Positions 1,998 through 40,789 of a DNA stretch of 40,789 nt are shown here, in pieces. This DNA is from a virus, in IMG/VR virus record IMGVR_UViG_3300028831_000215, positions 1-40,789 of that record; one strand, given 5' to 3'. A program made the translations under genes and the position numbers. The notes beneath the pieces were generated by a model, which was given only the letters and a program-made list of their open reading frames with translations, was not told the DNA's origin and did not search any database. Position 1 is the first letter of the stretch. The number at the start of each line of letters is the position of its first letter.

Positions 1998-4118
1998 CTA
2001 GTTGGGTGATGGGGAGATAGTCTTCTTCGGTTCCGGCTTCTGTGGGGCCATGACGATGCCCGTGGAAAGATCAGGTGGGGGAAGAGCAGCGTTCTCCAGT
2101 GCCGCCTCCAGTTGGTTCCGCGCCAGGACTCCGCCCGACTTGATGAGCGCCGCCAGAGCGGTGATGAGAGAGGCGGGATCCGAGGGCTGCTGGTTTTGCT
2201 GCGGCTGGTTCCCCTGCTCCTGCTTCATCAAGTTGGCGCGGTCCATCAAGGTCTGCGCCTCCCAGGTCTTCAATCCCATCGTGGGCAAGAGAAGATCCAG
2301 GGCGGGGGGCAAAATCCCCTGCTGCATCAAGGTCTGAATCGCCTGGGTCGTGAGTTCGCTCCGCTGCGCGTCCTCAAGATCGGCTGAGACTGCGATCTTC
2401 ATGTTCCGGGGAAGCGTCCGGTACGCCATCAGCACCATGTCCGGGTCCCCCGCCGAATTCCGCACCGGGAAATAGGACGGCAGAGTCAAATGCTGCCACG
2501 CGAGCTGATGGAGTGCCGTGCCTCGGGCGCTTCGGTACTGAGCAAGGCGTCTCGTATGCCCGTCCACGCGAGTAGTCGCCGCATCTCTTCGGGCCACGAC
2601 TTCTTTCCCGGACGTAGGAGACGTGGGGGCCAGGCCGTAGACCACATCTGTGATGCCGCCCATTTCCTGGAAGTCCCGCCGAATGGTCTCCTCGGCGGTC
2701 ACGAAGGCTTGGATGTTGAATGGCGCTGCGGGGAGGTATCGGGCCAACCCGATCAGGGGGATGGGAAGGCCGATCTTCGCGTTCGGCTGGTTACTCAGGG
2801 CCGCGTAGGTCGGGACCCGGTTCGGATACTCCAGCAGCCCGTTCACGGACGTTCTCAGGTAGTCCATGAGCTGTTGCATGTTCTTGTTGGCGTTGACCTG
2901 CGCGGTACGGAGCATCCCCACTTCCCCGTAGCCCGCGAACCGGCGGTTCACTCTCCGGTGGTGGTACTCGAACACCGGGAACACGCAGTCAATCTTGTCC
3001 GGGTTCGATCCCTCCCAGAGCATCCCGTCCTCGCAATGGACCTTCAAGATGCCGTAGGGGTACTTGAACTTCTTTCCCGTCAGGGTCCGGTCCACGGTGG
3101 CGGGAATCCGTACCGGGGCTAGCGCCTCAGAGCCGCACGTAGGGCACTGAGGTGTCGCAGGAATGGATTCCTCCATCCCGACCTCGGTATCGGGCGGCTC
3201 CAGGTGCGGAGCGTCAAAGATGTCCCCGCAGGAGGCGCAGGAGTACCCGTCCCTTTCCCCCGAGACCAGCCGTTCGGTGATCTCGTTCTCGATCTCCTCG
3301 TTACGGACCCAGGTGAAGCAGATGTCCGCACCCAGCTCGCAAAGCTGGCCCTTGGCGTTGTACTGGAAGGTGTATCCGCCCCCGGCCAGAATCTCCTGAT
3401 CGGTTCGGCTCCGGTAGTCTTTGCGATTGTCCGGGGAGGTGATGGGGACCGAGCGGAACTTGATCTTCATCCAGGCCGGGACCCCGGTTTGGGGGTCCAC
3501 CTGGTTAAAGATTTCCCGGCACTTGGCAGCCGTCAGCCATTTCTCGACATGGAGAATGTCCAAGTCCGCGATACGGGAACCCTCGTCGGGGTTCCAATAC
3601 ACACGAGAAGGGTCCAGGGCTTCCAAGGCGAAAGACGGCATCCCGGACCGGGGGTCTTTCTTGACCAGGATCTGGGTATAGCCTTTGCCTGTGGCCATGC
3701 CGTCCCAGACGCAATCTTCGTCGAACTCCTCGGCCCTCACCCTGCGGTGAAGATCCTCGATGGCTTCCTGGACCTTCCACCGCTGGGTGAAGTCCACGGG
3801 AGCGCCGTAGGGGATGGCCGTGTACTTGGGCTTGGGACCGAGGATCATCTGCGCCTTCTGGTCGCAGGTGGCGTAGAGCCAGTTACGGACTCCCTGGTTT
3901 CGGCCCTTGATCCTCTGTGCGGCCTGGGTGTTCTTGGGGACGGGGTTGTGGTTTTCTCCGAGGAGGAATTTCCAGTCTCGCTCGAAGTTCTGGCGGAACT
4001 CGGCGGTCTTGGTCTTCGCCTGCTTGTAGAGGGCGCGTACCGCTTTCCAGGAATCCGACTCCCGATCCTCGTCTGCGGCGGAAGATGCGAGGCGATGCTG
4101 GTCCGCCATTCCTTCCAA
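1998..4118 (-). CDS. Portal protein
   Basis: 706-aa ORF immediately downstream of the large terminase. Size and synteny fit TerL-portal-scaffold-capsid. There is an alternative ATG at 4109. Confidence 0.7.
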   Translation of the reverse strand: MEGMADQHRLASSAADEDRESDSWKAVRALYKQAKTKTAEFRQNFERDWKFLLGENHNPVPKNTQAAQRIKGRNQGVRNWLYATCDQKAQMILGPKPKYTAIPYGAPVDFTQRWKVQEAIEDLHRRVRAEEFDEDCVWDGMATGKGYTQILVKKDPRSGMPSFALEALDPSRVYWNPDEGSRIADLDILHVEKWLTAAKCREIFNQVDPQTGVPAWMKIKFRSVPITSPDNRKDYRSRTDQEILAGGGYTFQYNAKGQLCELGADICFTWVRNEEIENEITERLVSGERDGYSCASCGDIFDAPHLEPPDTEVGMEESIPATPQCPTCGSEALAPVRIPATVDRTLTGKKFKYPYGILKVHCEDGMLWEGSNPDKIDCVFPVFEYHHRRVNRRFAGYGEVGMLRTAQVNANKNMQQLMDYLRTSVNGLLEYPNRVPTYAALSNQPNAKIGLPIPLIGLARYLPAAPFNIQAFVTAEETIRRDFQEMGGITDVVYGLAPTSPTSGKEVVARRDAATTRVDGHTRRLAQYRSARGTALHQLAWQHLTLPSYFPVRNSAGDPDMVLMAYRTLPRNMKIAVSADLEDAQRSELTTQAIQTLMQQGILPPALDLLLPTMGLKTWEAQTLMDRANLMKQEQGNQPQQNQQPSDPASLITALAALIKSGGVLARNQLEAALENAALPPPDLSTGIVMAPQKPEPKKTISPSPN

Positions 4119-4135
4119 GATGACCGTAGGATCGG

Positions 4136-5623
4136 TCAGACGTATTCCTCCCCTGAGTAAGCTACTTCCTGCCTGTTATCGGTAAGCCCCAAGAGCGCCC
4201 CGTCGTCGATCATCCCCGGCATCACGTCCCCTTCGTACAACTCGCACTCCATGGGGGGATTCAGAATCGGCGGGTCCTGGATGAAGGCGGCCAAGGCCAT
4301 TCCTGCGGCAAAGGCTTCGTCATCGAAACAGCCGTGCGCGGCCTCGACTCGCGTCTTCCCGCTATCGGGATTTCGCTTCTCCACGATGGACGCAAGTTCC
4401 AGCACGCACGTATTGGTGTAGACCTCCCAGCCCTCACGCAAAGCAACCTCGTGGGCGGAAAGGATCATCCCTCGGGTCGATTCGTTCGTGTGCCAGCCGA
4501 CGCCACCTTTCCACTCCATCTTCGCCTTGTCGTAACGAAGGTCGGTGAAGAGGTTGTCGTAGTGGTCACGAAGGGCCTGCATGAAGGCTCCGCCGTAGTC
4601 ACCGTTACGTTCCGGGACTCCCAGGGCGTAGTTGTAGTAGACCAGAATCGGATAGGCGATCTCCCGAGCGAACCGCTCCGGGTCGATACGGTCGCTCTTG
4701 TACCGGAGCACGATCCGGGGCTTCATGCTTCCCGCTACGATCTCGCCCTTGTCGTTTCGGGCCTTGAGCCCCATGGCGATGACATAGGCGACGGAGCGGT
4801 CTTTCCGGTTTCCGCCGGAGACATCGAACCCCGCGACGTAGCGTTCCCCTGGCATGCGCTCCTCGAACAAGAGCCATTCCCCGTAGGCCCCTCGTTCGAG
4901 TCTCGTCTGTTTCAGGTCGTTGATCGTGATGCGGGCGTGCTCGCCCTTCGTGACCTTCTTCTGGGCGACTTCGATCTGCTCGGCGTCGTAGTAGATGTTC
5001 GACCCTACGAGCGAGTACTTGCCGAAGAACCGCGCCTTCCGTTCGTGGGGCTTGTAACCGTGGTACTGACGCATGATCTCCTCGTGCGTCAGGTGCCCGC
5101 CCTTCTCGATATCGCAGTCGAAAAGGGAGAACTCGAAGAAGTCCACGATCTTCTCGCCCTTCCCGCCCCGGAGGTAGTCTTCCGAGGTCTCGTCGAAAAG
5201 GCGCGAATGGCTCCACGTCGCCCCCTGGTCGGGGGTGAAGGTCATGATGATGTCCAAGGGCCTCCCCGGACCGAACCGGGAATAGCACTCGTTGAAGATC
5301 TCCCCGCCTCGGGGATTCGGTTCCTCGTCCAAGTGGATCAGGTCGCACTCGGCTCCCTTGAACCGCTCAGGCCCGGCCTCGCAGCTCATCAAGTGGAGTT
5401 CTGAGTTCCCCCACTTTTTGGACATCTTGAAGATGCCGTCCGAAAGGTATTCCTTCCAATCCCGCCCTTCGTCCCCCGGCAAGTGCTCCCGGATTCTCTG
5501 CCGGAGGATTCTCCCTAGGCGCTTGTTGTCCAAGGCCACGGCCCAGACAAGGGTCGGTAGCTTGAAGGTGCGCCAGGGGCGGTAGAGGTCCTTCCCCAAG
5601 AGGGTGGCGACATCGCACACCAC
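4136..5623 (-). CDS. terL: Terminase large subunit. The true 5' end lies upstream, and the frame is open to 5827.
   Basis: Walker B DLIHLDEEP. RNase-H-like nuclease half (VAGFDVSGG...). The Walker A motif SGPNRGGKT at 5633-5656 is in frame but upstream of the first GTG at 5623. Confidence 0.9.
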   Translation of the reverse strand: MVCDVATLLGKDLYRPWRTFKLPTLVWAVALDNKRLGRILRQRIREHLPGDEGRDWKEYLSDGIFKMSKKWGNSELHLMSCEAGPERFKGAECDLIHLDEEPNPRGGEIFNECYSRFGPGRPLDIIMTFTPDQGATWSHSRLFDETSEDYLRGGKGEKIVDFFEFSLFDCDIEKGGHLTHEEIMRQYHGYKPHERKARFFGKYSLVGSNIYYDAEQIEVAQKKVTKGEHARITINDLKQTRLERGAYGEWLLFEERMPGERYVAGFDVSGGNRKDRSVAYVIAMGLKARNDKGEIVAGSMKPRIVLRYKSDRIDPERFAREIAYPILVYYNYALGVPERNGDYGGAFMQALRDHYDNLFTDLRYDKAKMEWKGGVGWHTNESTRGMILSAHEVALREGWEVYTNTCVLELASIVEKRNPDSGKTRVEAAHGCFDDEAFAAGMALAAFIQDPPILNPPMECELYEGDVMPGMIDDGALLGLTDNRQEVAYSGEEYV

Positions 5624-8161: not shown

Positions 8162-8665
8162 CTACCGCGCCCTCAGATTGAAGATCGCCGCCGGTGCAAT
8201 TGTGTCCACCGTAGGAATTACCTTCGTTGTAAAATTGGACCGGGCGCAGTTCGGCACCGGGTTTTGACCTGTCTGGGCGGGGAGGCCGTCGTCACAAGCC
8301 GTGACCATGAACCAGTACTTCCCGCCCGCCAAAAAGCTGTCCGTTATGGTGAAACTCATGGCGCTGCCAGCGACAAGCGGTACGGGACCTGTTGCGTTCT
8401 TGGCGGAATTGACCCACGCCAAGATCCCAGCCGGAGTGCTCCCAACAGGTGCCCCAGCATTGAGCCACGCCGAATACCCCGTCGTGTCCGGGGTCGCACT
8501 GCTCCAGAAGACCTTGTACGAGGCCGCCGTACCCACAGCCCCGTCGTCTCCCGTAGCGGTCCAGTCCAGGGTCACCGAGGGCACTTGGGCATGGGGCTTC
8601 TCGCAGGCCGCTGACGTGATCGCAAGGCTCAGAATCGCCCCCGCTAGAAAGACTCGCAATCGCAT
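8162..8665 (-). CDS. Exported (possibly lipo-) protein with an Fn3-like domain
   Basis: N-terminal signal MRLRVFLAGAILSLAITSAAC. The body YKVFWSS...YWFMVTACD resembles a fibronectin-III fold. Confidence 0.55.
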   Translation of the reverse strand: MRLRVFLAGAILSLAITSAACEKPHAQVPSVTLDWTATGDDGAVGTAASYKVFWSSATPDTTGYSAWLNAGAPVGSTPAGILAWVNSAKNATGPVPLVAGSAMSFTITDSFLAGGKYWFMVTACDDGLPAQTGQNPVPNCARSNFTTKVIPTVDTIAPAAIFNLRAR

Positions 8666-12843: not shown

Positions 12844-13872
12844 GTGAACGAACCTACCTCAATCCAAAGCGCGGCGGCTTCCCCGACCGTGACCCCCAGC
12901 ACCCAGGGGGCCGCTGCGCCGTCTACAGGCATCATGTCGGGCTTCAACGATATCCAACGCATGGCGAAGGCCGTTGTCTTCTCCAGGCTCTTCCCTTCCA
13001 TCCAGAACGAGGCCCAGGCCATCACCCTCATGCTGATTTGCCAGGCCGAGGGCTTGCATCCGGTGGAAGCCTTGCGCCACTACGACATCATCCAGGGCAG
13101 AGCGGCCATGAAGTCGGAGGCGATGCTGGCGCGGTTTCAGTCTCGGGGCGGGACCGTGAAGTGGATCAAGAGCGATGCCACGGAAGCGCGGGCCTTGTTC
13201 TGTTCCCGGGGATGCCCGGAAGGATTCGAGTACGCCTACAGCATGGCGGACGCGACCGTGGCGGGGCTGGCCGGGAAGGACAACTACAAGAAGAACGGGG
13301 CGGCGATGCTCCGGGCTCGGTGCGTGAGTGGCGGTGTCAGGGCCACGGACCCGGGCGCGATCTTGGCGACTTACACGCCTGAGGAAGTTGCGGACTTCGA
13401 GCCGCCCAAGGGAAAGGCAGTGGAGCAGGCACCAGAGGGCGGGGCGCTACAACCGGCGGATCTAGGCACGCCGGATCGAAACGTGGCCCCGCCCCTGGAT
13501 GCCGAACATGAAGAGGTAGACCCCGAGGTCCCGCCAGCTGTGGGGCCCGAGGGAGAAGACGTTTCTTTGGATCGCCTCATGTCCGAAGCTGCGGCGAACC
13601 GAGCCAAGGCCGAGGCTGAGCTGGCATCGCGGCCCATCCCGGTGCCAGCCTTCATTCCGATGCACTGCAACATCTGTAAGGCCCCCGTCAAAGGCTACCG
13701 CTCCGACTCGAAGCAGTTCCCCGGCAGGATCTACTACGGGTGCGAAGCAGCACACGACTTGAAGCTGGAATTCATCAAGGAAGGGCTTACGGCGGCCAAG
13801 GCGAACGCGAAGGTAGCGGGCCATTTCAGGGAGTGGGCGGACAAGTCTACCCCGGCTGAGGTAGAGGCGTGA
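12844..13872 (+). CDS. Single-strand annealing protein (RecT-like) with a C-terminal zinc ribbon, putative
   Basis: The core AQAITLMLICQAEGLHPVEALRHYDIIQGRAAMKSEAMLARFQSRGG resembles phage RecT-type recombinases. The tail has CNICK...YYGCE. GGAGG lies 6 nt before the GTG at 12844. Confidence 0.5.
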   Translation: MNEPTSIQSAAASPTVTPSTQGAAAPSTGIMSGFNDIQRMAKAVVFSRLFPSIQNEAQAITLMLICQAEGLHPVEALRHYDIIQGRAAMKSEAMLARFQSRGGTVKWIKSDATEARALFCSRGCPEGFEYAYSMADATVAGLAGKDNYKKNGAAMLRARCVSGGVRATDPGAILATYTPEEVADFEPPKGKAVEQAPEGGALQPADLGTPDRNVAPPLDAEHEEVDPEVPPAVGPEGEDVSLDRLMSEAAANRAKAEAELASRPIPVPAFIPMHCNICKAPVKGYRSDSKQFPGRIYYGCEAAHDLKLEFIKEGLTAAKANAKVAGHFREWADKSTPAEVEA

Positions 13873-14300
13873 GCGACCGGGACCCGAACGGAAAGGCACC
13901 GTCTGAGGCGGGTGCCAAGCTGGACGCCGGAAAGCTGCGCCCCGGTCTCGTGATCCTTGGATTCTCTCGCGCCCTGGAGGGCGTGGCCGAGGTCGGCACC
14001 TACGGCGCGAAGAAGTACAGCGCCGGTGGCTGGGAGTCCGTGCCCAACGGGGTCGAGCGATACACGGATGCCATGTGGCGGCACTATCTCGCGGAGCGGC
14101 GGGAACTCTTGGACCCGGAGAGCTGGCTTCCCCACGCCGCGCACGCCGCATGGAACTCGCTCGCAAGGTTGGAGCTGATCCTTCGGGCTGACGCGAACCC
14201 GCATTGGCGCTGCGGTGATTGCGGGTCGCCCCCGAAGGGGCTAGGCCGCGACGGGCGCTGCCTGAAATGCAGCAAGCAATTGCTCGACCCAGAGCCATGA
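13869..14300 (+). CDS. DUF5664-like (dATP/dGTP pyrophosphohydrolase N-domain-like) protein with a C-terminal zinc ribbon
   Basis: KLDAGKLRPGLV...ALEGVAEVGTYGAKKY...W...RYTDAMWRHY...DPESWLPHAAHAAWNSLARLE matches my memory of that family. CGDC...CLKC tail. Confidence 0.55.
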   Translation: MSDRDPNGKAPSEAGAKLDAGKLRPGLVILGFSRALEGVAEVGTYGAKKYSAGGWESVPNGVERYTDAMWRHYLAERRELLDPESWLPHAAHAAWNSLARLELILRADANPHWRCGDCGSPPKGLGRDGRCLKCSKQLLDPEP

Positions 14301-23027: not shown

Positions 23028-23534
23028 TCACGGGTTCAGGACTGACTCATCGGGAACTACCTTGAGGGCGTAGGCTAAGGCTTGGACGTGATCGGGTTTC
23101 TTGCCCTTGAAGTCCGCGTGGGGCAGGGCTTGGGTGAACATCTCCCATGTGAGGGGGTTTCCCTGGGCGCGCATCTTCTCTAGCGCGGCGCGGACGTATC
23201 CCCATCCACAGTTGTAGGAGCAGATGGCCCACCGCCAGAGGAGCAAGGGATCATCGAGGAGCCCGTGAAGGTAGAGGGCCACCATGGAATGAAGCTTGGC
23301 GTCGTAGCGTGCAGCCCCTTCGATTGCCTCCTCGGGGTCCAGGGGGTCTCTGACTCCCTCGTCTTTCGCGGTGAGTCCCATGAACTGCATGAGCCCCATC
23401 GCTCCCGCTGAGGAGTGGGCGTCGGGATTGAAGCCCGACTCAGCGAAGGCTTGAGCCTTGAGCATCCTCCATGGGGCTTGGTACTTGATCCCGTACCACT
23501 GAAAGAGCGAATCGTATCGGTCGCTCCATTTCAT
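23028..23534 (-). CDS. Lytic transglycosylase (SLT domain), endolysin or virion lysin
   Basis: AQAFAESGFNPDAHSSAGAMGLMQFM carries the catalytic ES...GLMQ signature. Confidence 0.8.
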   Translation of the reverse strand: MKWSDRYDSLFQWYGIKYQAPWRMLKAQAFAESGFNPDAHSSAGAMGLMQFMGLTAKDEGVRDPLDPEEAIEGAARYDAKLHSMVALYLHGLLDDPLLLWRWAICSYNCGWGYVRAALEKMRAQGNPLTWEMFTQALPHADFKGKKPDHVQALAYALKVVPDESVLNP

Positions 23535-27875: not shown

Positions 27876-28214
27876 CTACCTGAGTGCGATGACGGCCCAG
27901 GTGTATGGAACGGTGCAGCGGAAGGCAACGGTGTCGCGGGAGAATGGTGCAGGGGTGTCCGTGTAGATCGTTCCGGGTCGCGCTCCAGCCGTGGGAGAAT
28001 GAATCCCCGTCTCGACAATCGTCCACGTCCTGGGAACCGACCCCAGGTTGTGCCGTGTCGGAGTCAGGGTGTCATAGGCTCCGGTAACGGGGCCGAACTT
28101 GATGTAGACGTGGACCTCCTTGAACTGCCCCATCGTTCGGGAGTCGTAGGTCCGTCTTTTGGGCAGCGCCACAGCCCCGGGATTGATGTCTCTCGATGTG
28201 ACGGTCTTGATCAT
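27876..28214 (-). CDS. Hypothetical beta-rich structural protein (112 aa)
   Basis: ATGA overlap with the upstream stop at 28211-28214. Confidence 0.5.
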   Translation of the reverse strand: MIKTVTSRDINPGAVALPKRRTYDSRTMGQFKEVHVYIKFGPVTGAYDTLTPTRHNLGSVPRTWTIVETGIHSPTAGARPGTIYTDTPAPFSRDTVAFRCTVPYTWAVIALR

Positions 28215-30640
28215 CCCGGCTGCTTCCTTCGGGTCTTCTTCCCGTGGAGGAAGGCCGAGAACACGTAGGCGTTCCGCTCCAATGAAGCGGTCACGTTGGC
28301 GGTACACCTGAGATTGATCGCCGCGCATCCCGTTCCCGAAGTCGAGAAGCGGGACACGTAGGAGGTCAGGGTGTCGCTATCGTCCCCCGTGGGGCTCGCG
28401 GCCAGGACCGGCTTTTCCCCGATGGCCAGGGTCGTATTGACCGAAGTCGCCAGAGACCCCAATCCCAGGGTGTCCAGTTCCCAGAGTTCGGGGACCATGA
28501 GTTCCGCCTTCCAGGGGCCGTAGGGAACCTCCCAGAGGCATTGCATGGTCGTGCCGTCGTCATTGATTCCGGCTTCCCCGAACCAGACCGCAAGGTCCGT
28601 GGTAGCTCCGCCCCAGCGATGCCGCCCGTAGACCGGGGCCAAGCGCCCCTCGTAGTCCGTCCCGTGCGGCCAGCGCACCGAGCAGATCGGCTGCATGTAG
28701 TCTTTCTCCGAATTGGAGAACGTGGTCTTGCTCCACTCCCCCGTTCGGAGCGAATAGAAGTACTTGGTGAAGAGGTTCCCATAGAGGGCCGAGGGCCACT
28801 GATTGGCGAAGGCCGACCCCCTATCTTGCGGGATCAGCTCCAGCTCGTAGCCGAAGTCGTACCCCACCCCGCGAGACATGCCGTGAACCAAGGTGGAGCA
28901 GTTCTCCAGTCTCACGGGCCAGCCCAGAGGTTGGGGCGGGTTCACTCCATCCCACATCATGGGGCCAGCCTCGGAGAGCCAGAACAAGACCCCGTGCGCC
29001 ACCACAATCGACCATGGAGCGACACAGCCGATCTCAGGATGGATCGTGATGGGATACCAGTCGTCGGGGGTTTCCAAGCCCGCGATGCCGTACATGGCCC
29101 GCTGCGTGAACACCACGGCCATGTCCGCGTAATCCGCCATCCCCGTGACTTCATCTCCGCCCCCGGTCGTGAAGTCCTGGAATCCCGAGTCCGACAAGGT
29201 ATCGAAGGCTTCATATTCCCCGGGGAGGGAGGGCCACACGCGAGAGGGGGTGCCGCGCCCGTTCGCCAGGAGAAGGCGATTCTTGTGGAACAACATGAGC
29301 TTCGCGTTCCGGGGAGGGGTCCGGTCCCGGGTGTCCAAGTTGACGAGCGGGGAGATCAAAGGCAGGTTCTGCCAGTCCTGGTATCCCACGTTCCCGATTC
29401 CGTTCACCGGGTAGGTACCGTCCCCGGGCTGGCGGAACACTTGGGCAATCAGGTAGGCGGGAACCGAATCGTAGAAGGCCGTGGAAGCGCCCGTGAGATC
29501 CCAGGTGCGGTAGATGAAGAAGCAGTCCACGATGCCCGAATCGTAGAGAGCTAAGTCCGCAGGGTCGATGTTCAGGTTGACCCCGAATGGAGCGCCCGAA
29601 GTGAAGGTCCCGATCTTGGTGGGCGGAGACTGTCCCCAGGCCCCTGCCGGTCCGTACCCGTAGGTCACGTAATAGGTGTAGGTCCCGGCGGGGACGTTCC
29701 CGGCGCTCACGGCTCCGGTGATGGTGCCCCCGGGCTTCGTGAACCCGATGGTGGCCGCTAGATTCTGATCCCCCTGATATCGGCGTTGCACCTGCCCGTT
29801 GGTCCAGTAGGCGACACCGTTATGGGAGGCGATGGAGACGGGGGAATCGTTGCCCGCGTCCAAAGCCGATACCCCGTCCGCGACGGCCCACTTGGTCTGT
29901 AGGGGAGGAGTGTTCTCCGAGGCGAACCGCCAGAGTTTCGCGGTGGTCGGGCTTGACAGCGAATTGCTCGTTGAGACCAGCGTCACGGTACGGGCCGGGA
30001 AGTCTCCCGTGATCTGAATCCCGTAGTTGCGAGGCGCAATCGGCCCGCCCCCGACCGCTGTGATCTCCGCGTAGACCGCGTAGCCGTAGTAGCCCGAGAC
30101 GAAATTACCCCCCCAATCCGAGGGCGGAGAGAATCGGATCGGGCGCTCCCCCAAGGCCGTGAACTGCTCCGTCACTCCGGGGAGGGTTTGCGCGGCACCG
30201 TTCGTGTCGAGGTACTTCCAGGCAATCGTGCAGTTGGTGTTGATGCGCCCGATCTGCGGGGTGAAGATCGAGAACTTGCCCGCCGGAGAGATGACGTAGA
30301 ACCGCTCTCCCACCGCCGCTGTGCTGAACAGAACGAAATACGCTTGCTGGGAGATGTCTTCCGAGAAGGCTCCCGCAGCCGTTCTCCGGAGCAACACGGG
30401 CCAGGAAGATCGCATCTGATGCCCGCCCGTGACCATGGACGTAGCACTCGATCCCACGAGGGGAGAAGCAGCGGTCCACGTTCCTCCGGTGGGCGCGGGC
30501 TTCTTCACTCCCGCACGGATTCGGAGGCCGCCTTCGGGGGTCGTGCGAAGGTTCTCCAGATCCGCAAGCCGCTGGGGGTCCTCTTCCAGGGTCTTCCGGG
30601 TCCAGAGCCCCTTGAATTGCTGTAGCGCGTTCAGGAGCAC
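28211..30640 (-). CDS. Tail tubular B / nozzle-like protein (809 aa), putative
   Basis: About 800 aa, following a roughly 240-aa adaptor-like gene as in podovirus tails. No motif-level proof. Confidence 0.45.
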   Translation of the reverse strand: MLLNALQQFKGLWTRKTLEEDPQRLADLENLRTTPEGGLRIRAGVKKPAPTGGTWTAASPLVGSSATSMVTGGHQMRSSWPVLLRRTAAGAFSEDISQQAYFVLFSTAAVGERFYVISPAGKFSIFTPQIGRINTNCTIAWKYLDTNGAAQTLPGVTEQFTALGERPIRFSPPSDWGGNFVSGYYGYAVYAEITAVGGGPIAPRNYGIQITGDFPARTVTLVSTSNSLSSPTTAKLWRFASENTPPLQTKWAVADGVSALDAGNDSPVSIASHNGVAYWTNGQVQRRYQGDQNLAATIGFTKPGGTITGAVSAGNVPAGTYTYYVTYGYGPAGAWGQSPPTKIGTFTSGAPFGVNLNIDPADLALYDSGIVDCFFIYRTWDLTGASTAFYDSVPAYLIAQVFRQPGDGTYPVNGIGNVGYQDWQNLPLISPLVNLDTRDRTPPRNAKLMLFHKNRLLLANGRGTPSRVWPSLPGEYEAFDTLSDSGFQDFTTGGGDEVTGMADYADMAVVFTQRAMYGIAGLETPDDWYPITIHPEIGCVAPWSIVVAHGVLFWLSEAGPMMWDGVNPPQPLGWPVRLENCSTLVHGMSRGVGYDFGYELELIPQDRGSAFANQWPSALYGNLFTKYFYSLRTGEWSKTTFSNSEKDYMQPICSVRWPHGTDYEGRLAPVYGRHRWGGATTDLAVWFGEAGINDDGTTMQCLWEVPYGPWKAELMVPELWELDTLGLGSLATSVNTTLAIGEKPVLAASPTGDDSDTLTSYVSRFSTSGTGCAAINLRCTANVTASLERNAYVFSAFLHGKKTRRKQPG

Positions 30641-31356
30641 TAGTTGTTCCAGTCCGTGTCGTCCACGGTGTAGTCCATGTCGTCGATCACGGGAGCCGCC
30701 TCATCTTCGGTCTCAGGCTCCGCCGAATCTCGGGCGCGTTGCTTGGCCAGTTCCCAGGACTTCGCGCAGAGTTGGGCGAGGACCGCCTGCTGTGGGTCCA
30801 TGATCGCCATCCGCATCCGCGCTTTCATCTCCGCGTAGTCCTTGCAGGCGTCCATCCAGACTTCCGTCAGTTCCGGCGCTTGCCCTCCATCGACCATCGT
30901 CTTGGGCATCTGACGGAGGTAGATGAAAAGATCGGGAGCTGTGCCGGTACTGCCGAAGTTCTTGTCCCAGACGATGCCCTTGACCGAGTTCCCGGAGGCG
31001 TCGTTACCGGCCCAGACCGCGTACTTGCTCGGGGTGTCGGAGGTCTGCGTGGTGCGGTCCACGGGGCGCTCCTTGATGTGTCCCATGGGGCGGATGCGCT
31101 TCTGGACGTTGGAACGCCTCAAGTCGATACGAACGATCTTGATGAAGTCAGGGGCGGGCAAAGACATGATCTCGACGTTCGCCTGACTCGTGCCCTGGAA
31201 ACAGGTCTTGAGAATCGGCCCTTCCATGGCGAGCGTGCGAGCGGCCTCGGAAAGCCAGGTGGCGACCATGGCGCGAGTGAAATGCGCGGGGGTTGCGGCT
31301 GTGGTTCCAACGCGGTCGCAAACGTCGTTGATGCAAGTCGCGGTGTCTTCGGCCAA
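30640..31356 (-). CDS. Head-tail adaptor / tail tubular A-like protein (238 aa), putative
   Basis: Synteny only. Acidic C-terminus. Confidence 0.4.
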   Translation of the reverse strand: MAEDTATCINDVCDRVGTTAATPAHFTRAMVATWLSEAARTLAMEGPILKTCFQGTSQANVEIMSLPAPDFIKIVRIDLRRSNVQKRIRPMGHIKERPVDRTTQTSDTPSKYAVWAGNDASGNSVKGIVWDKNFGSTGTAPDLFIYLRQMPKTMVDGGQAPELTEVWMDACKDYAEMKARMRMAIMDPQQAVLAQLCAKSWELAKQRARDSAEPETEDEAAPVIDDMDYTVDDTDWNN

Positions 31357-31539
31357 CTACTTCCCTCGTTTCTGGGCCATGCGGCGGAAGGTCATGGCAA
31401 GCCGCGCCTCACGAGCGAGCTTCCCGCCCTTCCCTGCGGCGGCCTTTTCCTTGGAGAGCGGAATCTTCTTCCCCTCCGGGACCCCGAGCTTCCGGTGCAA
31501 GGCTCCCTTGTCCATGTGCATCCCCTGAATCCAGTTCAC
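31357..31539 (-). CDS. Small basic protein (60 aa)
   Basis: TAGGAGG lies 8 nt before the GTG. KGALHRKLGVPEGKKIP. Confidence 0.5.
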   Translation of the reverse strand: MNWIQGMHMDKGALHRKLGVPEGKKIPLSKEKAAAGKGGKLAREARLAMTFRRMAQKRGK

Positions 31540-31551
31540 CGCTTTAGCCTC

Positions 31552-32154
31552 CTAGTGCCCTGCGTGCGATAGCCACACTTCCCCTTTGCCGGGAAGCATG
31601 AGATGGATACCGTTGATGTAGCTCGTGGAGTCGGTCTCCCCCACCACGAGACGCGCTCCGAATTTCCGGTACTCCTTGTTCCGCGCCTCCTCAGTGATCC
31701 CAAGAGGCTGTCCCGCGAAGGAGAGCGTGTTTTCGGTGTGGAGCTGGAAGAGCGCCCCGAACCCCGAGGCGTTGTAGTCCGCGCAGAGGAGCGTCCCCTT
31801 GATCTGGAACTTGGCGAACCGGGACCCGTCCGGGAAAAGCGTGAAGGGGTACAGGTAGGTTTCGATGGACCCGTTCTCTTCCACCTCCGCCAGCGTCCCC
31901 TCGGCGTACTTGAGCAAGGGGGTGTAGAAGGAATCGCCCGGGGCCTCAAACGGCATCACGCCCAACGTGGTGTCGGGGTAACCGGGGAGTCCCTTGCAGC
32001 GAAAGACCCACGCCTGGGGCGCGTTTAGCGAGGGCGCTTGGTGCCTGTCTCCACAGGAGACTGCGGGGCGGGCGGGCTGGAGGGCGCGATACGGTACGTC
32101 ATCCCCGCACCCGGAAAGCGAGAGCAGGACCGCTAGCAGAATGGCTTTTCTCAG
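31552..32154 (-). CDS. Lipoprotein (about 200 aa). Start proposed at the CTG at 32154; the first canonical start is a TTG at 31965.
   Basis: The in-frame upstream extension encodes (CTG)RKAILLAVLLSLSGCGDD, a textbook lipoprotein signal with the LSGC lipobox. Confidence 0.65.
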   Translation of the reverse strand: MRKAILLAVLLSLSGCGDDVPYRALQPARPAVSCGDRHQAPSLNAPQAWVFRCKGLPGYPDTTLGVMPFEAPGDSFYTPLLKYAEGTLAEVEENGSIETYLYPFTLFPDGSRFAKFQIKGTLLCADYNASGFGALFQLHTENTLSFAGQPLGITEEARNKEYRKFGARLVVGETDSTSYINGIHLMLPGKGEVWLSHAGH

Positions 32155-32243
32155 AACTTGTCACCGCTCCTCGGAAGAGGTGTATGCTAGGAGACGGAAC
32201 AGAAGTGATGCCGTCTCTAGTCTGGAAAGGTGGGCTGATACCC

Positions 32244-32744
32244 ATGAAATACTTGGTGATTCTCCTGGCGCTGCTGGTCGCGGCCCCGGCTCATGCCATG
32301 TGGGGCCTGACGTTCAGCGCCGTGGCAGACTCCGAAGATCCGCTCTTGGTCGGCTATTCCACCAACGGCTACGCGACTTTCGACTCTGACCCCTACGGAA
32401 CCGTCCCGCCGACCATGACGGACTTCTCTTTCGATTGGGACGGGGTTTCCTGGGATGAGACGAACACTAGCTTCCTCTGGACCCCAGGAGCACGCCCGGG
32501 CCTCACGTTCACGGGCTTGGATGGGCTCAATGCGTTCACGGTCTTCAACACCGGGGACGCTGGCTTCACGTACACCGCTCTGAGGGCGCTTCCGGTCTCG
32601 GGGCCAGTTCAGTACCAGGGGTCGCTAATCAGCTGGGCAGCGTTTTACTACCCCGATCCCATACCGGAACCCTCAAGCGCTCCGCTTCTCGCCTTAGGTC
32701 TGGCGCTCCCCCTGGGATTCCTCGCGGTGCGGAAAATCGCCTAG
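32244..32744 (+). CDS. PEP-CTERM-anchored exported protein (166 aa)
   Basis: Sec signal MKYLVILLALLVAAPAHA. C-terminus IPEPSSAPLLALGLALPLGFLAVRKIA (PEP motif, TM helix, basic tail). Confidence 0.7.
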   Translation: MKYLVILLALLVAAPAHAMWGLTFSAVADSEDPLLVGYSTNGYATFDSDPYGTVPPTMTDFSFDWDGVSWDETNTSFLWTPGARPGLTFTGLDGLNAFTVFNTGDAGFTYTALRALPVSGPVQYQGSLISWAAFYYPDPIPEPSSAPLLALGLALPLGFLAVRKIA

Positions 32745-34732
32745 AAGGGTGTGTTTGGATCTCCGAAGTAGATGTTGAATACCTGATCTTCGTGGTCGGT
32801 CCCGTCCGAAGCCTGGACACCCTGAGTCACGTAGGTTTTGGCCCGGGCGTCATCGTCAGGAGAGACGGGACCGAAGGTGCATCCGACCCTCGCATTGCTG
32901 ATCTTGGTCACCGTGAAGGTGCCGAAGAGCGCCGTCCCCTCGTCGAGCTTCGTGAAGGTGATCGTGTCCCCGTCCAAGTCCACGCAATCCGCTAGGTACT
33001 GGCTGATGGGCGCATGCCCCACGTAGTTCGACATCGGAGAGTAGAAGTACCGAAGGAGCGTCATGTGCGGCGCTCGGTTCACGTTGTTCACCGTGACCGT
33101 TATCGTCTTCTGGTCCGTGAGTAGCCCCGGGTCCGTGGCCTGGGTCACGACGCTATACGTTCCAGAGTCCCTGAAATTCGGGGCCAGGTGGATGTTCCCC
33201 GTCGCCGTTCCTGATCCCGGGTCGGTCGTAGTCACCGCAGCGAAGCTTGGCCCGGAGACGAGAGAGAAGAAGAGAGGGTCCAAGTCAGCGTCCGTGGCGC
33301 TCAGGGCAACGTCCGTCTGCGCCCCTTCGTTCATGGTCTGGTTCGACGGTTGAGTCAGAGACGGAGACCGGGGCACGTCCGAGACGGTGACGAGCATCGT
33401 CTGATCGTTCGTGAGCGACCCGTCCGAGACGCGCACGGTCGTTGAGACGGACCCCGCGTCAGTGTATCCCGGGGCCAGATGGATATTCCCGGTGGCGGTC
33501 CCCGTCCCTCCTGCCGTGGTCGTTACCGTCATGTACGTGGGGCCGGATTGCTTCGAGAAGGTGAGCGATTGCCCGTCCTGATCCGTAGCGGAGAGGGATT
33601 GGTCCGCTGTGGCGTTTTCGTTCACGGTCATGCTGGTAGGAGTGGCCAGCACCGGGGCCACGTTGGTGTTCAGCTTGAATTTGTTGCTGACCGAGCCGTT
33701 CCGGTCGATGACGTAGACGTACTTCCCGGTGAGAGAAGCGAAGGCCCCTTGGTTCGCAGTGATCTTGATGGAGTCTCCGCTGGACTTCCAGAATGTCGCC
33801 GGTTGGATCTCCCGCTGGGTGCAGTTCACGTAGGCCGAGTCGTTCCCAATCTCGACGTGGGCGCGTGTCGTGTCCACGTAGGTGTCTTCCCAATAGGTGT
33901 AAGTCGGGTTTAGCGTGTTCTGGGGGCAGGATGAGATGCCATAGTGCGCGACGAAGTTCCCGAAGAAGACAGTATCCCAATATCGTGAGTCGGCCCGGGT
34001 TTGAACGTTGGCGCTTCGATTGATTGAAGTCGTGTCGTCGATGGTCAGTATCTCGGTGCCGTCCGCCACCCCCGGCGAGGATTGGGCCATGTAGGCTTGA
34101 ATGTGCCGCCAGTGGTTCGCGAAGAAGACGGACCCCCGCCAGGGGGAGGCGGGAAGGAGTAGCGGCGTTCCGCCCCCATCGGAGCCGAGCCGTGCGCCGT
34201 CCGTATCTTGGAAGCAGTAGATGTTCAGGTATTGATTCGGCTGCTGGGTGCTCGCGAAGTCCGCGTGAATCCGAAGAAGCTTCACGTTCCGGGACTCCGG
34301 CGTGGCGGGCGCATAGTTGACCCAGGTGTCGATGTAGAGCACCGGCAGTCCTGGAGCGGGCACGCTGGCGATGCCGAAGTTGGAGGAGTAGTTGCAGCCC
34401 TCGTCGCCGCAGTTCAGAAGATTGTCGAATCGCGCCTGGGCGCTCCTCGTGGAGTTGGTGCGGGTCACGCTGCTGGAGTAGATCGGATAGAGGCCGTGGT
34501 TCGTTCCTGCCCCGTTCTTAGAGAGCGTCCAGCCGTTCCCGATGTTCTGCCCCAAGGTTCCGCCCTCGAACGTATCGAACTTGACCGGGGCCGCGACTCC
34601 CTTGGTCCCGAACCCCGTTCCCACAATAGTCAGGCTGTTCCCGTTCCCGATGACCCCGGAAACGCTCGTGATCTGGGGCGCAGCATGGACCGAAGACGCG
34701 CAAAGCAGTAACGCCAGTAGGAACCGCTTCAA
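32741..34732 (-). CDS. Secreted multidomain protein: signal peptide, IPT-like domain, ConA/lyase-like domain, two or more cadherin-like repeats
   Basis: TTGA-coupled TTG at 34732 gives KRFLLALLLCASSVHA/APQ. There is a tandem repeat with ...SATD.D...TGTATGNIHLAP... Confidence 0.65.
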   Translation of the reverse strand: MKRFLLALLLCASSVHAAPQITSVSGVIGNGNSLTIVGTGFGTKGVAAPVKFDTFEGGTLGQNIGNGWTLSKNGAGTNHGLYPIYSSSVTRTNSTRSAQARFDNLLNCGDEGCNYSSNFGIASVPAPGLPVLYIDTWVNYAPATPESRNVKLLRIHADFASTQQPNQYLNIYCFQDTDGARLGSDGGGTPLLLPASPWRGSVFFANHWRHIQAYMAQSSPGVADGTEILTIDDTTSINRSANVQTRADSRYWDTVFFGNFVAHYGISSCPQNTLNPTYTYWEDTYVDTTRAHVEIGNDSAYVNCTQREIQPATFWKSSGDSIKITANQGAFASLTGKYVYVIDRNGSVSNKFKLNTNVAPVLATPTSMTVNENATADQSLSATDQDGQSLTFSKQSGPTYMTVTTTAGGTGTATGNIHLAPGYTDAGSVSTTVRVSDGSLTNDQTMLVTVSDVPRSPSLTQPSNQTMNEGAQTDVALSATDADLDPLFFSLVSGPSFAAVTTTDPGSGTATGNIHLAPNFRDSGTYSVVTQATDPGLLTDQKTITVTVNNVNRAPHMTLLRYFYSPMSNYVGHAPISQYLADCVDLDGDTITFTKLDEGTALFGTFTVTKISNARVGCTFGPVSPDDDARAKTYVTQGVQASDGTDHEDQVFNIYFGDPNTPF
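33071..33661 (-). repeat. Two tandem cadherin-like / Ig-like domain repeats of about 97 aa inside the secreted protein
   Basis: Amino acids 382-477 and 478-578 of the ORF-track translation align: LSATDQDG/LSATDADL, GTGTATGNIHLAPGY/GSGTATGNIHLAPNF. Confidence 0.7.
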
Positions 34733-35238
34733 TGGACGAACCTCACTTTGTAGGTGCCCCCGCCAGCGTCCGGGTCCGCCGCAGCTCCGGCGATCTGGGT
34801 CCAACGCACTGTGACCGTGTTCGCCGCCGAGACAAACGCCGTGAGGACGTAGTTCGCTCCAATCGTGACCGGAGCGCCCACGATGGGCTGATCCCCCAAG
34901 GCTGCTCCCGTGACCGTGATCGTGAGATCCACGGACCCTGGAACCGCCCCGGGAGCGCCGAAGTTCAACGTGGCCGAATTGCCGCTAATCAGGGGCACTA
35001 GAGTCCCGCCCACGTAGATGCCCTTGTTGGCGCGGAGCGTGTCGTTGTAGATGCCCTTGCCCCAGACAATGAGGTCCCCGGAGCGGAACGGCCCTTCCGT
35101 GCTGATCGAGTCCGAGGCGTGGAGTTTCCCTACCACGTCCGCGTTCCCGGTCACATTCAACCCGTCTCTGACACTCCATCCCAGAGCGACAACAAGAAGC
35201 GCCCCCAGGACGATTCCCTTAGCGAAAGCGCGTCTCAA
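34729..35238 (-). CDS. Membrane-anchored or exported beta-rich protein (169 aa)
   Basis: TTGA coupling. N-terminus MRRAFAKGIVLGALLVVALGW. Confidence 0.55.
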   Translation of the reverse strand: MRRAFAKGIVLGALLVVALGWSVRDGLNVTGNADVVGKLHASDSISTEGPFRSGDLIVWGKGIYNDTLRANKGIYVGGTLVPLISGNSATLNFGAPGAVPGSVDLTITVTGAALGDQPIVGAPVTIGANYVLTAFVSAANTVTVRWTQIAGAAADPDAGGGTYKVRFVH

Positions 35239-40063: not shown

Positions 40064-40789
40064 TCACGTAAGGTGCTGAACCGCGAGATCGCGGCCCGTC
40101 GCGCCGTACGTGGTGTTCGAGTGCGCGGACTTAGCGCCCCAATTGCAGTAGGCGTAGACCTTGGTGATCAGGTCCTGCCGGTCCGTCTCGATCTTCGCGT
40201 CGTACTTCTTGCCCCAGACGATGGCCTTCTTCGCGGCCACCAGATTCCGGCGTCCCGAAGACGACAGCACGTTGCCGGTCAGGATGATGTCCCCGCCGTA
40301 GATCGTCGGGATCTTGCCGTTGACCGCAGCGCCCGGACCCGTTCCACGGACCGCAGCGTTCACGATGTCCGGGAAGGAGAGAATCGAGTCCAACTGCGCC
40401 AAGTCATAGATGCCGACGAAGGGGTCTCCATCGGTCATCTTGTCGCGGGCGTTGACCCGGAGACGCCGGAGCGCCAGGAGGAAGTTCGCCAGCGTGAAGT
40501 TGGTGCCCGAGGCCCCCACGTTGTCCGAGGCGTTGAACTCGGAATAGAGGTTCAGGATGTCGATTTCCAAGCCCTGGTAGACCGCTTCCGCCAAAACCGG
40601 GACATAGGCGTCCGCCAAGTTCGACACCGAGAAGTCCATCAGATCGGGCTCGATCGTGATGTTGACGGCCTTCAACGTCTGGGTCAGCGTGATCGCCAGA
40701 GAGGTGATCGACGCAGCCGTGTTGACCGATCCGCCAACGGACCAGGACTTGAGATCCGAGCCCGCCGCCCAGGTGCCGGGGGAGCCCGC
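40064..40789 (-). CDS. Major capsid protein, C-terminal part. It runs into the terminal repeat and continues at 1-327.
   Basis: ORF 40064..40675 stays open upstream to the window end and joins 1-327 in frame. The total is 303 aa. Confidence 0.75.
   Translation of the reverse strand, partial: AGSPGTWAAGSDLKSWSVGGSVNTAASITSLAITLTQTLKAVNITIEPDLMDFSVSNLADAYVPVLAEAVYQGLEIDILNLYSEFNASDNVGASGTNFTLANFLLALRRLRVNARDKMTDGDPFVGIYDLAQLDSILSFPDIVNAAVRGTGPGAAVNGKIPTIYGGDIILTGNVLSSSGRRNLVAAKKAIVWGKKYDAKIETDRQDLITKVYAYCNWGAKSAHSNTTYGATGRDLAVQHLT
40649..40789. repeat. Second copy of the 141-bp terminal direct repeat
   Basis: Identical to 1-141. Confidence 0.95.

Follow-up and report, generated by a model that had tools for sequence, protein, structure and literature searches.

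What is a gene for a protein with a bacterial surface-sorting signal doing in a tailed phage, alone on the strand opposite to the structural genes? The question is raised by the IMG/VR virus record IMGVR_UViG_3300028831_000215, whose entire length of 40,789 nucleotides (nt), called the window below, was analysed here. The gene encodes a protein of 166 amino acids (aa) with a predicted signal peptide at one end and a PEP-CTERM sorting signal at the other. The answer that seems fairly probable to us is a moron-like gene of bacterial origin, whose product would be delivered to the cell surface by an exosortase of the host. PEP-CTERM proteins themselves are already known; the unusual point is the phage location of this one.

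The initial annotation had placed a plus-strand open reading frame (ORF) at this position, and its ATG at 32244 and TAG at 32742-32744 are confirmed. By codon position the GC content is 0.59/0.51/0.74, as is usual for coding DNA. Among 5.8 billion proteins searched, two close homologues were found, P0002 with 84% identity on a JGI contig of 9,151 nt and P0003 with 56% identity on an ENA contig of 1,561 nt. The DNA locus carrying P0003, L001, served as the reference for codon comparison. When the phage gene and its counterpart in L001 are aligned by codons, the differences at first, second and third positions number 54/48/86, and 50 codons have differences that are synonymous only. The ratio of non-synonymous to synonymous changes (dN/dS) is 0.27, a value that covers the whole divergence from the bacterial copy and cannot show constraint since the capture by the phage. 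A Shine-Dalgarno sequence of its own had also been claimed for the gene, and it is there (AAGGTGGG at 32227-32234). The ribosome-binding stretch GGAAAGGTG and its spacing from the ATG are kept upstream of P0003 in L001, and because of this conservation we place the start at 32244 and not at the in-frame ATG upstream, at 32184. These comparisons indicate that the ORF did not arise by chance but is a genuine gene, and that the frame and the tail of the protein have evolved under purifying selection.

Both ends of the protein carry the features that had been ascribed to them. The N-terminus reads MKYLVILLALLVAAPAHA followed by MWG. By eye and from the alignment, it has a basic n-region (MK), a hydrophobic core of 12 residues, the sequence P-A-H-A and small residues at -3/-1. 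APAHA is identical across the three close homologues, and an A-x-A pattern is common in the wider family. The C-terminus consists of P141-E142-P143, a hydrophobic stretch of 19 residues with two prolines within it (SSAPLLALGLALPLGFLAV), R163-K164, and two further residues (IA) before the stop. At the DNA level, PEP occupies 32664-32672, the hydrophobic helix 32673-32729 and RK 32730-32735. The model made with AlphaFold2 (AF2) has helices at residues 2-12 and 145-165. All the PEP-CTERM features defined in Haft et al. are found in the phage protein, the basic cluster being just RK.

Comparison with hidden Markov models supports the PEP-CTERM assignment in part. Failure of such a model at the C-terminus had been named in the initial annotation as grounds for refutation. 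The NCBIfam model TIGR02595, whose curated cutoff is 16 bits, matches residues 140-164 with 17.1 bits (E 0.0073), so that this model is passed, narrowly, while the match to the Pfam model PF07589 stays below its gathering score. Against TIGR02595, P0002 has 17.1 bits and P0003 has 26.1 bits. The wider family gives a firmer basis. A HMMER profile of the three proteins was run against 1.84 billion cluster representatives (E <= 1e-3) and found 28 proteins. Most are 170-200 aa long and have a signal peptide, a domain that can be aligned over its full length and a canonical tail of VPEP, helix and RRR; the exceptions are two giant proteins built of repeats, one protein that has the domain in two copies, and some sequences that are truncated or partial. 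PEP-CTERM models match 15-18 of the 25 aligned family sequences (E <= 0.01), and the PF07589 cutoff is passed by all three relatives tested (P0005, P0010 and P0023, 22.6-34.1 bits). E142 and P143 are invariant in the 25 aligned sequences. A tail consensus for a host search is PEPS-APLLALGLALPLGF. In our judgement this homology, beyond the single score, settles that the protein belongs with the PEP-CTERM proteins. Its passenger domain falls outside all named PEP-CTERM subfamilies. The FxDxF family (NF038126), which matches best, does not include it, with 19.5 bits against a cutoff of 50 (13.5 for P0002 and 17.2 for P0003). A separate observation concerns the tails of several family members, the phage protein among them (P0001, P0005, P0011, P0014 and P0029), which share a proline in the helix (GL-x-x-PLG or LLPL); this in-helix proline may mark a tail variant suited to one exosortase type.

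Could the C-terminal segment be a mere membrane anchor? The protein would then face the periplasm without involvement of an exosortase, and its PEP would be an inherited relic. There it might, for instance, hinder DNA injection by competing phages or act on some target in the periplasm. The tail comparison speaks against this. Of the 24 tail codons, 7 are identical to those of P0003, 13 differ synonymously and 4 non-synonymously, three of these four exchanging one hydrophobic residue for another. Since the tail is 83% identical (20/24 residues) and the whole protein 56%, the sorting signal is the most constrained part. A generic anchor would allow far more variation than is seen in PEP and helix, where the protein sequence is held despite the 13 synonymous changes and where E142 and P143 do not vary in the family. 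A membrane anchor would nevertheless agree with the Pfam score below threshold and with the short RK. It would also fit with an exosortase that is expected rather than observed in the host, and with the T5 protein Llp, whose gene has the most similar layout and which works from the side of the periplasm (PMC9586334). We consider the plain anchor unlikely.

We turn to the genome in which this PEP-CTERM gene lies. The window is a complete tailed-phage genome of ~40,648 bp: positions 1-141 are exactly repeated at 40649-40789, so that the genome is closed or terminally redundant; the junction falls within the major capsid gene. There is a P22-like portal at 1998-4118 on the minus strand (Pfam 2.5e-15, PHROG portal 9e-14), a large terminase at 4136-5623 (PHROG 1e-14) and an SLT-type endolysin at 23028-23534. 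Homologues of an 809-aa virion protein and of a 238-aa protein are found on related contigs that carry the SU10_adaptor family. Genes at 10-21.7 kb on the plus strand encode a RecT-like protein, an HNH/NinG-like nuclease, a MazZ-like pyrophosphohydrolase and a replication initiator. Among the ORFs tested, neither an integrase nor a repressor was detected. The phage lineage is poorly sampled in databases. The 809-aa protein, which is nozzle-like, has no match in 50,697 GenBank phages and the terminase has two weak ones, no more; relatives of the backbone are absent from IMG/VR and from the JGI contig collection.

The gene had been described as the only one on the plus strand within 18 kb, which is true and understated. 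Once the genome is closed, the minus-strand block extends from ~9.5 kb through the junction to 21.7 kb, and the PEP-CTERM gene is the sole plus-strand gene of these ~28 kb of structural genes. A gene with bacterial relatives, in a contig assembled from a metagenome, naturally raises the suspicion that a bacterial fragment has been misjoined into a phage contig. Such an artefact is hardly credible here. Phage genes lie close on both sides, with an overlapping stop on one and 89 nt on the other, the phage backbone resumes on either side of the block of ~4.2 kb described below, composition is uniform, and the contig closes on itself with the 141-nt overlap.

Related phage loci were recovered through homologues of the nozzle-like protein: L082 (58% identity, 16.3 kb), L083 (41%, on a contig of 38.7 kb) and L084 (58%, 3.9 kb). 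According to tblastn, L082 keeps the order of a 379-aa protein, an 83-aa protein, a fibre-like N-terminal domain, a 60-aa protein, the adaptor, the nozzle and the downstream genes; across the 60-aa protein, the adaptor and the nozzle the identity to the window is 55-67%. Four genes of the window have no counterpart in L082, L083 or L084, namely those for a 169-aa protein, a 663-aa protein, the PEP-CTERM protein and a lipoprotein-like product. The same slot holds the variable C-terminal part of a 628-aa spike and a 64-aa hydrophobic protein in L082, and a 60-aa hydrophobic protein in L084. None of the three loci has an antisense gene at this position. A PEP-CTERM-like C-terminus does not occur in any frame of L082-L085, and that of our gene is the only one in the window. 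Because the flanking backbone is conserved but the four genes are without counterpart, the gene belongs to a lineage-specific block of ~4.2 kb, which from its surroundings appears to sit where tail-fibre modules are exchanged. The comparison with a moron made in the initial annotation thus finds support, the gene and three neighbours being absent from the three related phage loci recovered.

Searches for relatives in other collections gave little. In IMG/VR neither the protein alone nor a sub-alignment of its family found a relative. None was found in JGI metagenome contigs, GTDB genomes or plasmids, and tblastn gave no match to the protein in the 50,697 GenBank phage records. A joined query of neighbour proteins and family members yielded matches only to the Big_9 protein and the C-terminal domain of the 169-aa protein, and brought up no further family members and no neighbours of P0002.

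Absence from the three related phages, from IMG/VR and from GenBank phages, together with the failure to find a promoter, would also suit bacterial DNA that was captured recently in a recombination-prone fibre region, is neutral, has no role in the phage and has not yet been lost. We regard this as quite improbable. The reading frame is unbroken and preceded by a conserved ribosome-binding site, and the dN/dS is 0.27, to be read with the limit given above. The gene is tightly packed, with overlapping stops at one end and just 89 nt at the other. Its GC (0.62) and third-position GC (0.77) match those of the phage (62.7% GC overall), which argues against a very recent arrival from an unrelated source, and the 84% variant P0002 retains every feature.

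The position among tail-fibre genes might be taken instead as a sign that the protein serves virion or tail-fibre assembly, or lysis, e.g. as a chaperone, a spanin or a holin partner. Four neighbours with hydrophobic or signal-like N-termini do hint at a common envelope-related process. The strand, opposite to that of every structural gene, makes such a role very improbable in our opinion, as does the fact that the relatives are bacterial chromosomal genes without phage context. Related phages assemble without the gene, and 9 kb separate it from the lysis genes at 21.7-23.8 kb, which comprise SLT and small membrane proteins. The coordinates of the gene, its parts and its neighbours are collected in the table.

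Table. Features of the PEP-CTERM locus and its surroundings (positions in the window)
Feature	Position	Strand	Basis or remark
PEP-CTERM protein, coding sequence, 166 aa	32244..32744	+	ORF, homologues, dN/dS, TIGR02595; stop TAG 32742-32744
Sec-type signal peptide, residues 1-18 (MKYLVILLALLVAAPAHA)	32244..32297	+	predicted cleavage after A-H-A
Passenger domain, residues 19-138	32298..32657	+	AF2, nine beta strands
PEP-CTERM sorting domain, residues 139-166	32658..32741	+	TIGR02595; AF2 helix; tail codon comparison
Shine-Dalgarno-like AAGGTGGG	32227..32234	+	9 nt before ATG, read from sequence
Divergent intergenic spacer, 89 nt	32155..32243		likely site of any promoter; inverted repeat
Lipoprotein-like ORF, 200 aa, (M)RKAILLAVLLSLSGC...	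31552..32154	-	divergent neighbour; CTG start needed
663-aa protein, signal-like N-terminus, Big_9/cadherin-like repeats	32741..34732	-	convergent neighbour; Big_9 1.5e-10
169-aa protein, hydrophobic N-terminus	34729..35238	-	C-terminal ~85 residues match fibre-like proteins
Tail-fibre-like protein, 443/445 aa	35235..36572	-	upstream edge of variable block
Conserved downstream backbone	28211..31539	-	60-aa protein; SU10-type adaptor homologue 30640-31356; 809-aa nozzle-like protein 28211-30640

From whom was the gene obtained? The P0003 gene lies 48 nt downstream of a gene for L-glutamate gamma-semialdehyde dehydrogenase and upstream of a gene for another secreted protein (a signal-peptide protein at 1301-1561 of L001), a setting that is bacterial and chromosomal. 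Its GC content is 63.4%, near the phage value. P0005, P0007 and P0011 are also on bacterial contigs. P0005 is directly followed, on two independent contigs, by a gene for a PIG-L family deacetylase (L088 3705-4415), P0007 has two further PEP-CTERM genes and a TPR protein within 9 kb, and P0011 has a glycosyltransferase gene nearby. The signal-peptide protein by P0003 and the deacetylase by P0005 are neighbours related to the envelope. All ten family members whose database clusters were looked up are known from metagenomes only. The arrangement of genes in L001 is repeated in none of 80 bacterial loci.

The dehydrogenase fragment beside P0003 offers a way to place the source. Among 185,579 species representatives its best identities are 55-68%, and the top matches are spread over Acidobacteriota, Ignavibacteria, KSB1, Eisenbacteria, Dormiibacterota and others. 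In a neighbour-joining tree without support values it groups with KSB1 and Eisenbacteria. We rejected this placement as a means of naming the host: with scattered matches and no support values it is too weak. The best-matching lineages are all soil or sediment groups, and soil and sediment are a niche where PEP-CTERM systems are common (PMC1569441). These data suggest that the source lineage, and by extension the host, is an uncultured bacterium, and that the gene was probably acquired from a bacterium of the host's kind.

PEP-CTERM proteins are found together with EpsH/exosortase in exopolysaccharide-producing bacteria with an outer membrane, and they are mostly encoded as single-gene units (PMC1569441). 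Deletion of the exosortase in Nostoc alters exported PEP-CTERM proteins and the formation of biofilm (PMC12188702). The phage itself has no ORF of at least 100 aa with at least three hydrophobic segments, hence no exosortase candidate. Since such a candidate is missing from the phage, any exosortase processing would depend on the host.

The sequence of events that we favour can be stated in five steps, and we consider these jointly to be fairly probable. Transcription would start within the divergent 89-nt spacer, separately from the structural operon; late transcription may run through the gene in antisense, as the initial annotation proposed. Translation begins at the ATG at 32244, behind a ribosome-binding site that is conserved in the bacterial homologue. 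The features of the N-terminus suggest export by Sec and cleavage after AHA. In the model, the C-terminal helix would then hold a beta domain of ~120 aa at the inner membrane, and RK would lie on the cytoplasmic side. Finally, as the association of PEP-CTERM proteins with exosortase suggests, the exosortase of the host would recognise PEP and release the passenger or attach it to the surface or the exopolysaccharide.

What might the passenger do once it is outside? The position by the fibre genes and the analogy with llp/oad of T5 suggest a sixth step, in which it would alter or mask the surface structure to which the phage binds. Superinfection exclusion could result, or less sticking of progeny to debris; we hold this role to be doubtful. 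Aggregation is as conceivable, by analogy with the PEP-CTERM proteins of floc-forming bacteria. In a more specific version, the protein would be made early, fixed outside by the host exosortase and so mask the structure recognised by the fibres, which would amount to lytic conversion by way of the sorting pathway. We think this version rather unlikely.

Several points weigh against delivery by an exosortase, and they need to be put together. Some concern the signal. The margin over the TIGR02595 cutoff is thin for the phage copy, and the threshold of PF07589 is missed with 15.9 bits against a gathering score of 20.7, only model positions 1-16 being matched. The basic cluster of PEP-CTERM proteins is usually RRR or more, and here it is only RK. 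The exosortase of the host is expected rather than observed. Others concern expression. The initial annotation had proposed a promoter in the spacer. The elements are there (TTGTCA at 32158 and TATGCT at 32183), with 19 nt between them, which is outside the usual promoter spacing, and a sigma-70 scan of 31500-33500 gave no site at all; as the host may use promoters of another type, this negative is a weak one. By eye, no sigma-54 spacing (GG-N10-GC) was seen upstream of the gene. There is no terminator, for which the overlapping stop codons leave no room. Independent expression of the PEP-CTERM gene is thus our assumption. With no integrase or repressor detected, a role in lysogenic conversion is without support.

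The last point of this kind is that the fold of the passenger, as modelled, matches nothing known and gives no clue to function. AF2 with an alignment of 25 sequences gave a full-length model with a pLDDT of 87.2. The domain alone, residues 19-138, is all-beta with nine strands (pLDDT 91.5, pTM 0.82). With Foldseek no PDB entry matched significantly (lowest E 0.03 with the full length and 0.086 with the domain, the latter with TM 0.23), nor did any in BFVD for the full-length model (lowest E 0.04). Weak matches to the folds of LolA, VP40 and galectin were rejected, all with TM < 0.3. The passenger has no family match in Pfam, PHROG or PADLOC.

We know other systems that resemble parts of this one. 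Like bacterial exosortase substrates, e.g. PepA of the Zoogloea floc and the CrtB-dependent proteins of Nostoc, the phage protein consists of a signal peptide, a passenger of the variable kind and a PEP/helix/basic end. It is likewise encoded by a small single-gene unit, and it has relatives in genomes with several PEP-CTERM genes (PMC1569441; PMC12188702). Unlike these substrates it is encoded by a phage, in a single copy, and without adjoining genes for an exosortase or for exopolysaccharide.

The second resemblance is to small envelope proteins of phages. Llp of T5 is a superinfection-exclusion (lytic-conversion) protein that blocks the receptor FhuA (PMC9586334). In T5, oad on the minus strand and llp on the plus strand diverge across ~80 bp that hold two annotated promoters. 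Similar to Llp, and to Cor of T1 and phi80, our protein is small and would be exported to the envelope, and its gene lies beside fibre or receptor-binding genes, on the opposite strand and behind a short divergent spacer (80 bp in T5 oad/llp, 89 nt here). Llp and Cor differ from it in having a lipoprotein signal instead of PEP-CTERM. The layout also departs from that of T5: here a lipoprotein-like ORF is the divergent neighbour and the gene for an Ig-repeat protein the convergent one. Homology to Llp or Cor was not found: there is no PHROG match, no tblastn match in the 50,697 phage records and no fold match in BFVD.

The third resemblance is to the morons of lambdoid phages, such as bor and lom in the late region of lambda. 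Here too an extra gene for an envelope protein of bacterial type stands among structural genes and is absent from relatives. Classic morons come with a promoter and a terminator of their own and are active in the prophage, whereas no promoter, terminator, integrase or repressor was found here.

As to earlier mentions, our full-text search of 8 million papers found no analysis of a phage-encoded exosortase substrate. A protein with a PEP-CTERM-type domain, HOG10, is mentioned in passing for the IME1 elements of Dehalococcoides (bioRxiv 10.64898/2026.09.15.751708), and genes of the TIGR03118 family are mentioned in passing among genes derived from horizontal transfer in Yellowstone viral contigs (bioRxiv 10.1101/2023.11.15.567249). 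Both are survey annotations of other protein families, without an analysis of locus, selection or orientation, and IME1 is no tailed phage.

The neighbours of the PEP-CTERM gene deserve some comment of their own. The spacer on its left contains, at 32191-32217, a perfect inverted repeat of 7 bp (GAGACGG-N13-CCGTCTC) that can be extended to ~10 bp; it could be an operator. The fold of the 5' region is no more stable than that of shuffled sequence (z -1.04), and the region has no Rfam family. The gene had been said to diverge from the start of a lipoprotein gene 89 nt away. The distance is correct, but the lipoprotein-like ORF needs a CTG start at 32154. It has a textbook lipobox, LSLSGC, and there is no ATG, GTG or TTG between the upstream stop and the cysteine, which leaves this CTG (or ATT) as the sole possible start; GAGGAG lies 12 nt upstream. 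No family match was found for it, PHROG and PADLOC included. Searches against the anti-phage defence families of PADLOC gave no match for the PEP-CTERM gene or its neighbours.

On the other side, the stop of the 663-aa gene overlaps that of the PEP-CTERM gene within CTAG. The mechanical call of a 687-aa ORF for the 663-aa gene begins too far upstream. Its actual start, a TTG, shares letters with the TGA that ends the 169-aa gene (ATTGA, 34729-34732), which suggests translational coupling. Over its last ~85 residues the 169-aa protein has 65-78% identity to the C-terminal domain of P0041-P0043, tail-fibre or spike-like proteins of 664-887 aa on unrelated contigs, and this domain looks like a shuffled fibre-tip module that is now in a separate small gene. 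The tail-fibre-like protein shares its N-terminal domain with the 628-aa protein of L082 (59% identity between residues 53-122 and the N-terminus of the latter), and the domain is also present in P0041. Downstream of the block, PF24175 (SU10_adaptor) is recorded for the homologues of the adaptor in L083 and L084, and the nozzle-like protein has a PHROG match to a virion structural protein.

Five consecutive genes, from 36572 to 31552, all have N-termini that resemble signal peptides or membrane anchors. Those of the fibre-like protein and of the 663-aa Ig-repeat protein, MRRRLACLLLALSLWAAPSQA and MKRFLLALLLCASSVHA, are signal-like. A signal-like N-terminus is kept in fibre or spike homologues, namely the 628-aa protein of L082 (MRRVLALSLTLLLASAAFAQ) and P0041 in L085. 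In a broader reading, which we likewise think rather unlikely, the five genes, tail-fibre-like proteins included, would form a phage-encoded module for remodelling of the cell envelope.

Two genes elsewhere in the genome may be mentioned. A second lipoprotein-like ORF (MRLRVFLAGAILSLAITSAAC...) at 8162-8665 on the minus strand, at the head of the minus-strand block, has no family matches. At 13869-14300 on the plus strand, the N-terminal domain of a MazZ-like dATP/dGTP diphosphohydrolase is encoded (PF18909, 2.9e-22). This gene brought up the possibility of a Z-genome, with 2-aminoadenine, which was rejected; the 352-aa gene upstream is RecT-like and not PurZ.

What would the PEP-CTERM gene mean for phages and for exosortases? 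To our knowledge, PEP-CTERM signals have been described only in bacteria with an outer membrane, an exosortase and exopolysaccharide production. The phage-borne copy is a built-in clue to the host of a phage lineage that could otherwise not be placed, and since one bacterial contig encodes an almost identical tail, there are fewer places to look for that host. Should the protein really be processed, no earlier analysed example would exist of a tailed phage that feeds a protein of its own into the exosortase pathway. If true, phages would have a third route for altering the cell surface, beside lipoprotein signals and plain Sec signals, and lytic conversion would proceed through a sorting pathway that no virus has been shown to use. 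As far as we know, the exosortase system is still poorly characterised biochemically, and a small substrate with a single domain and a high-confidence model would offer a handle on its biology.

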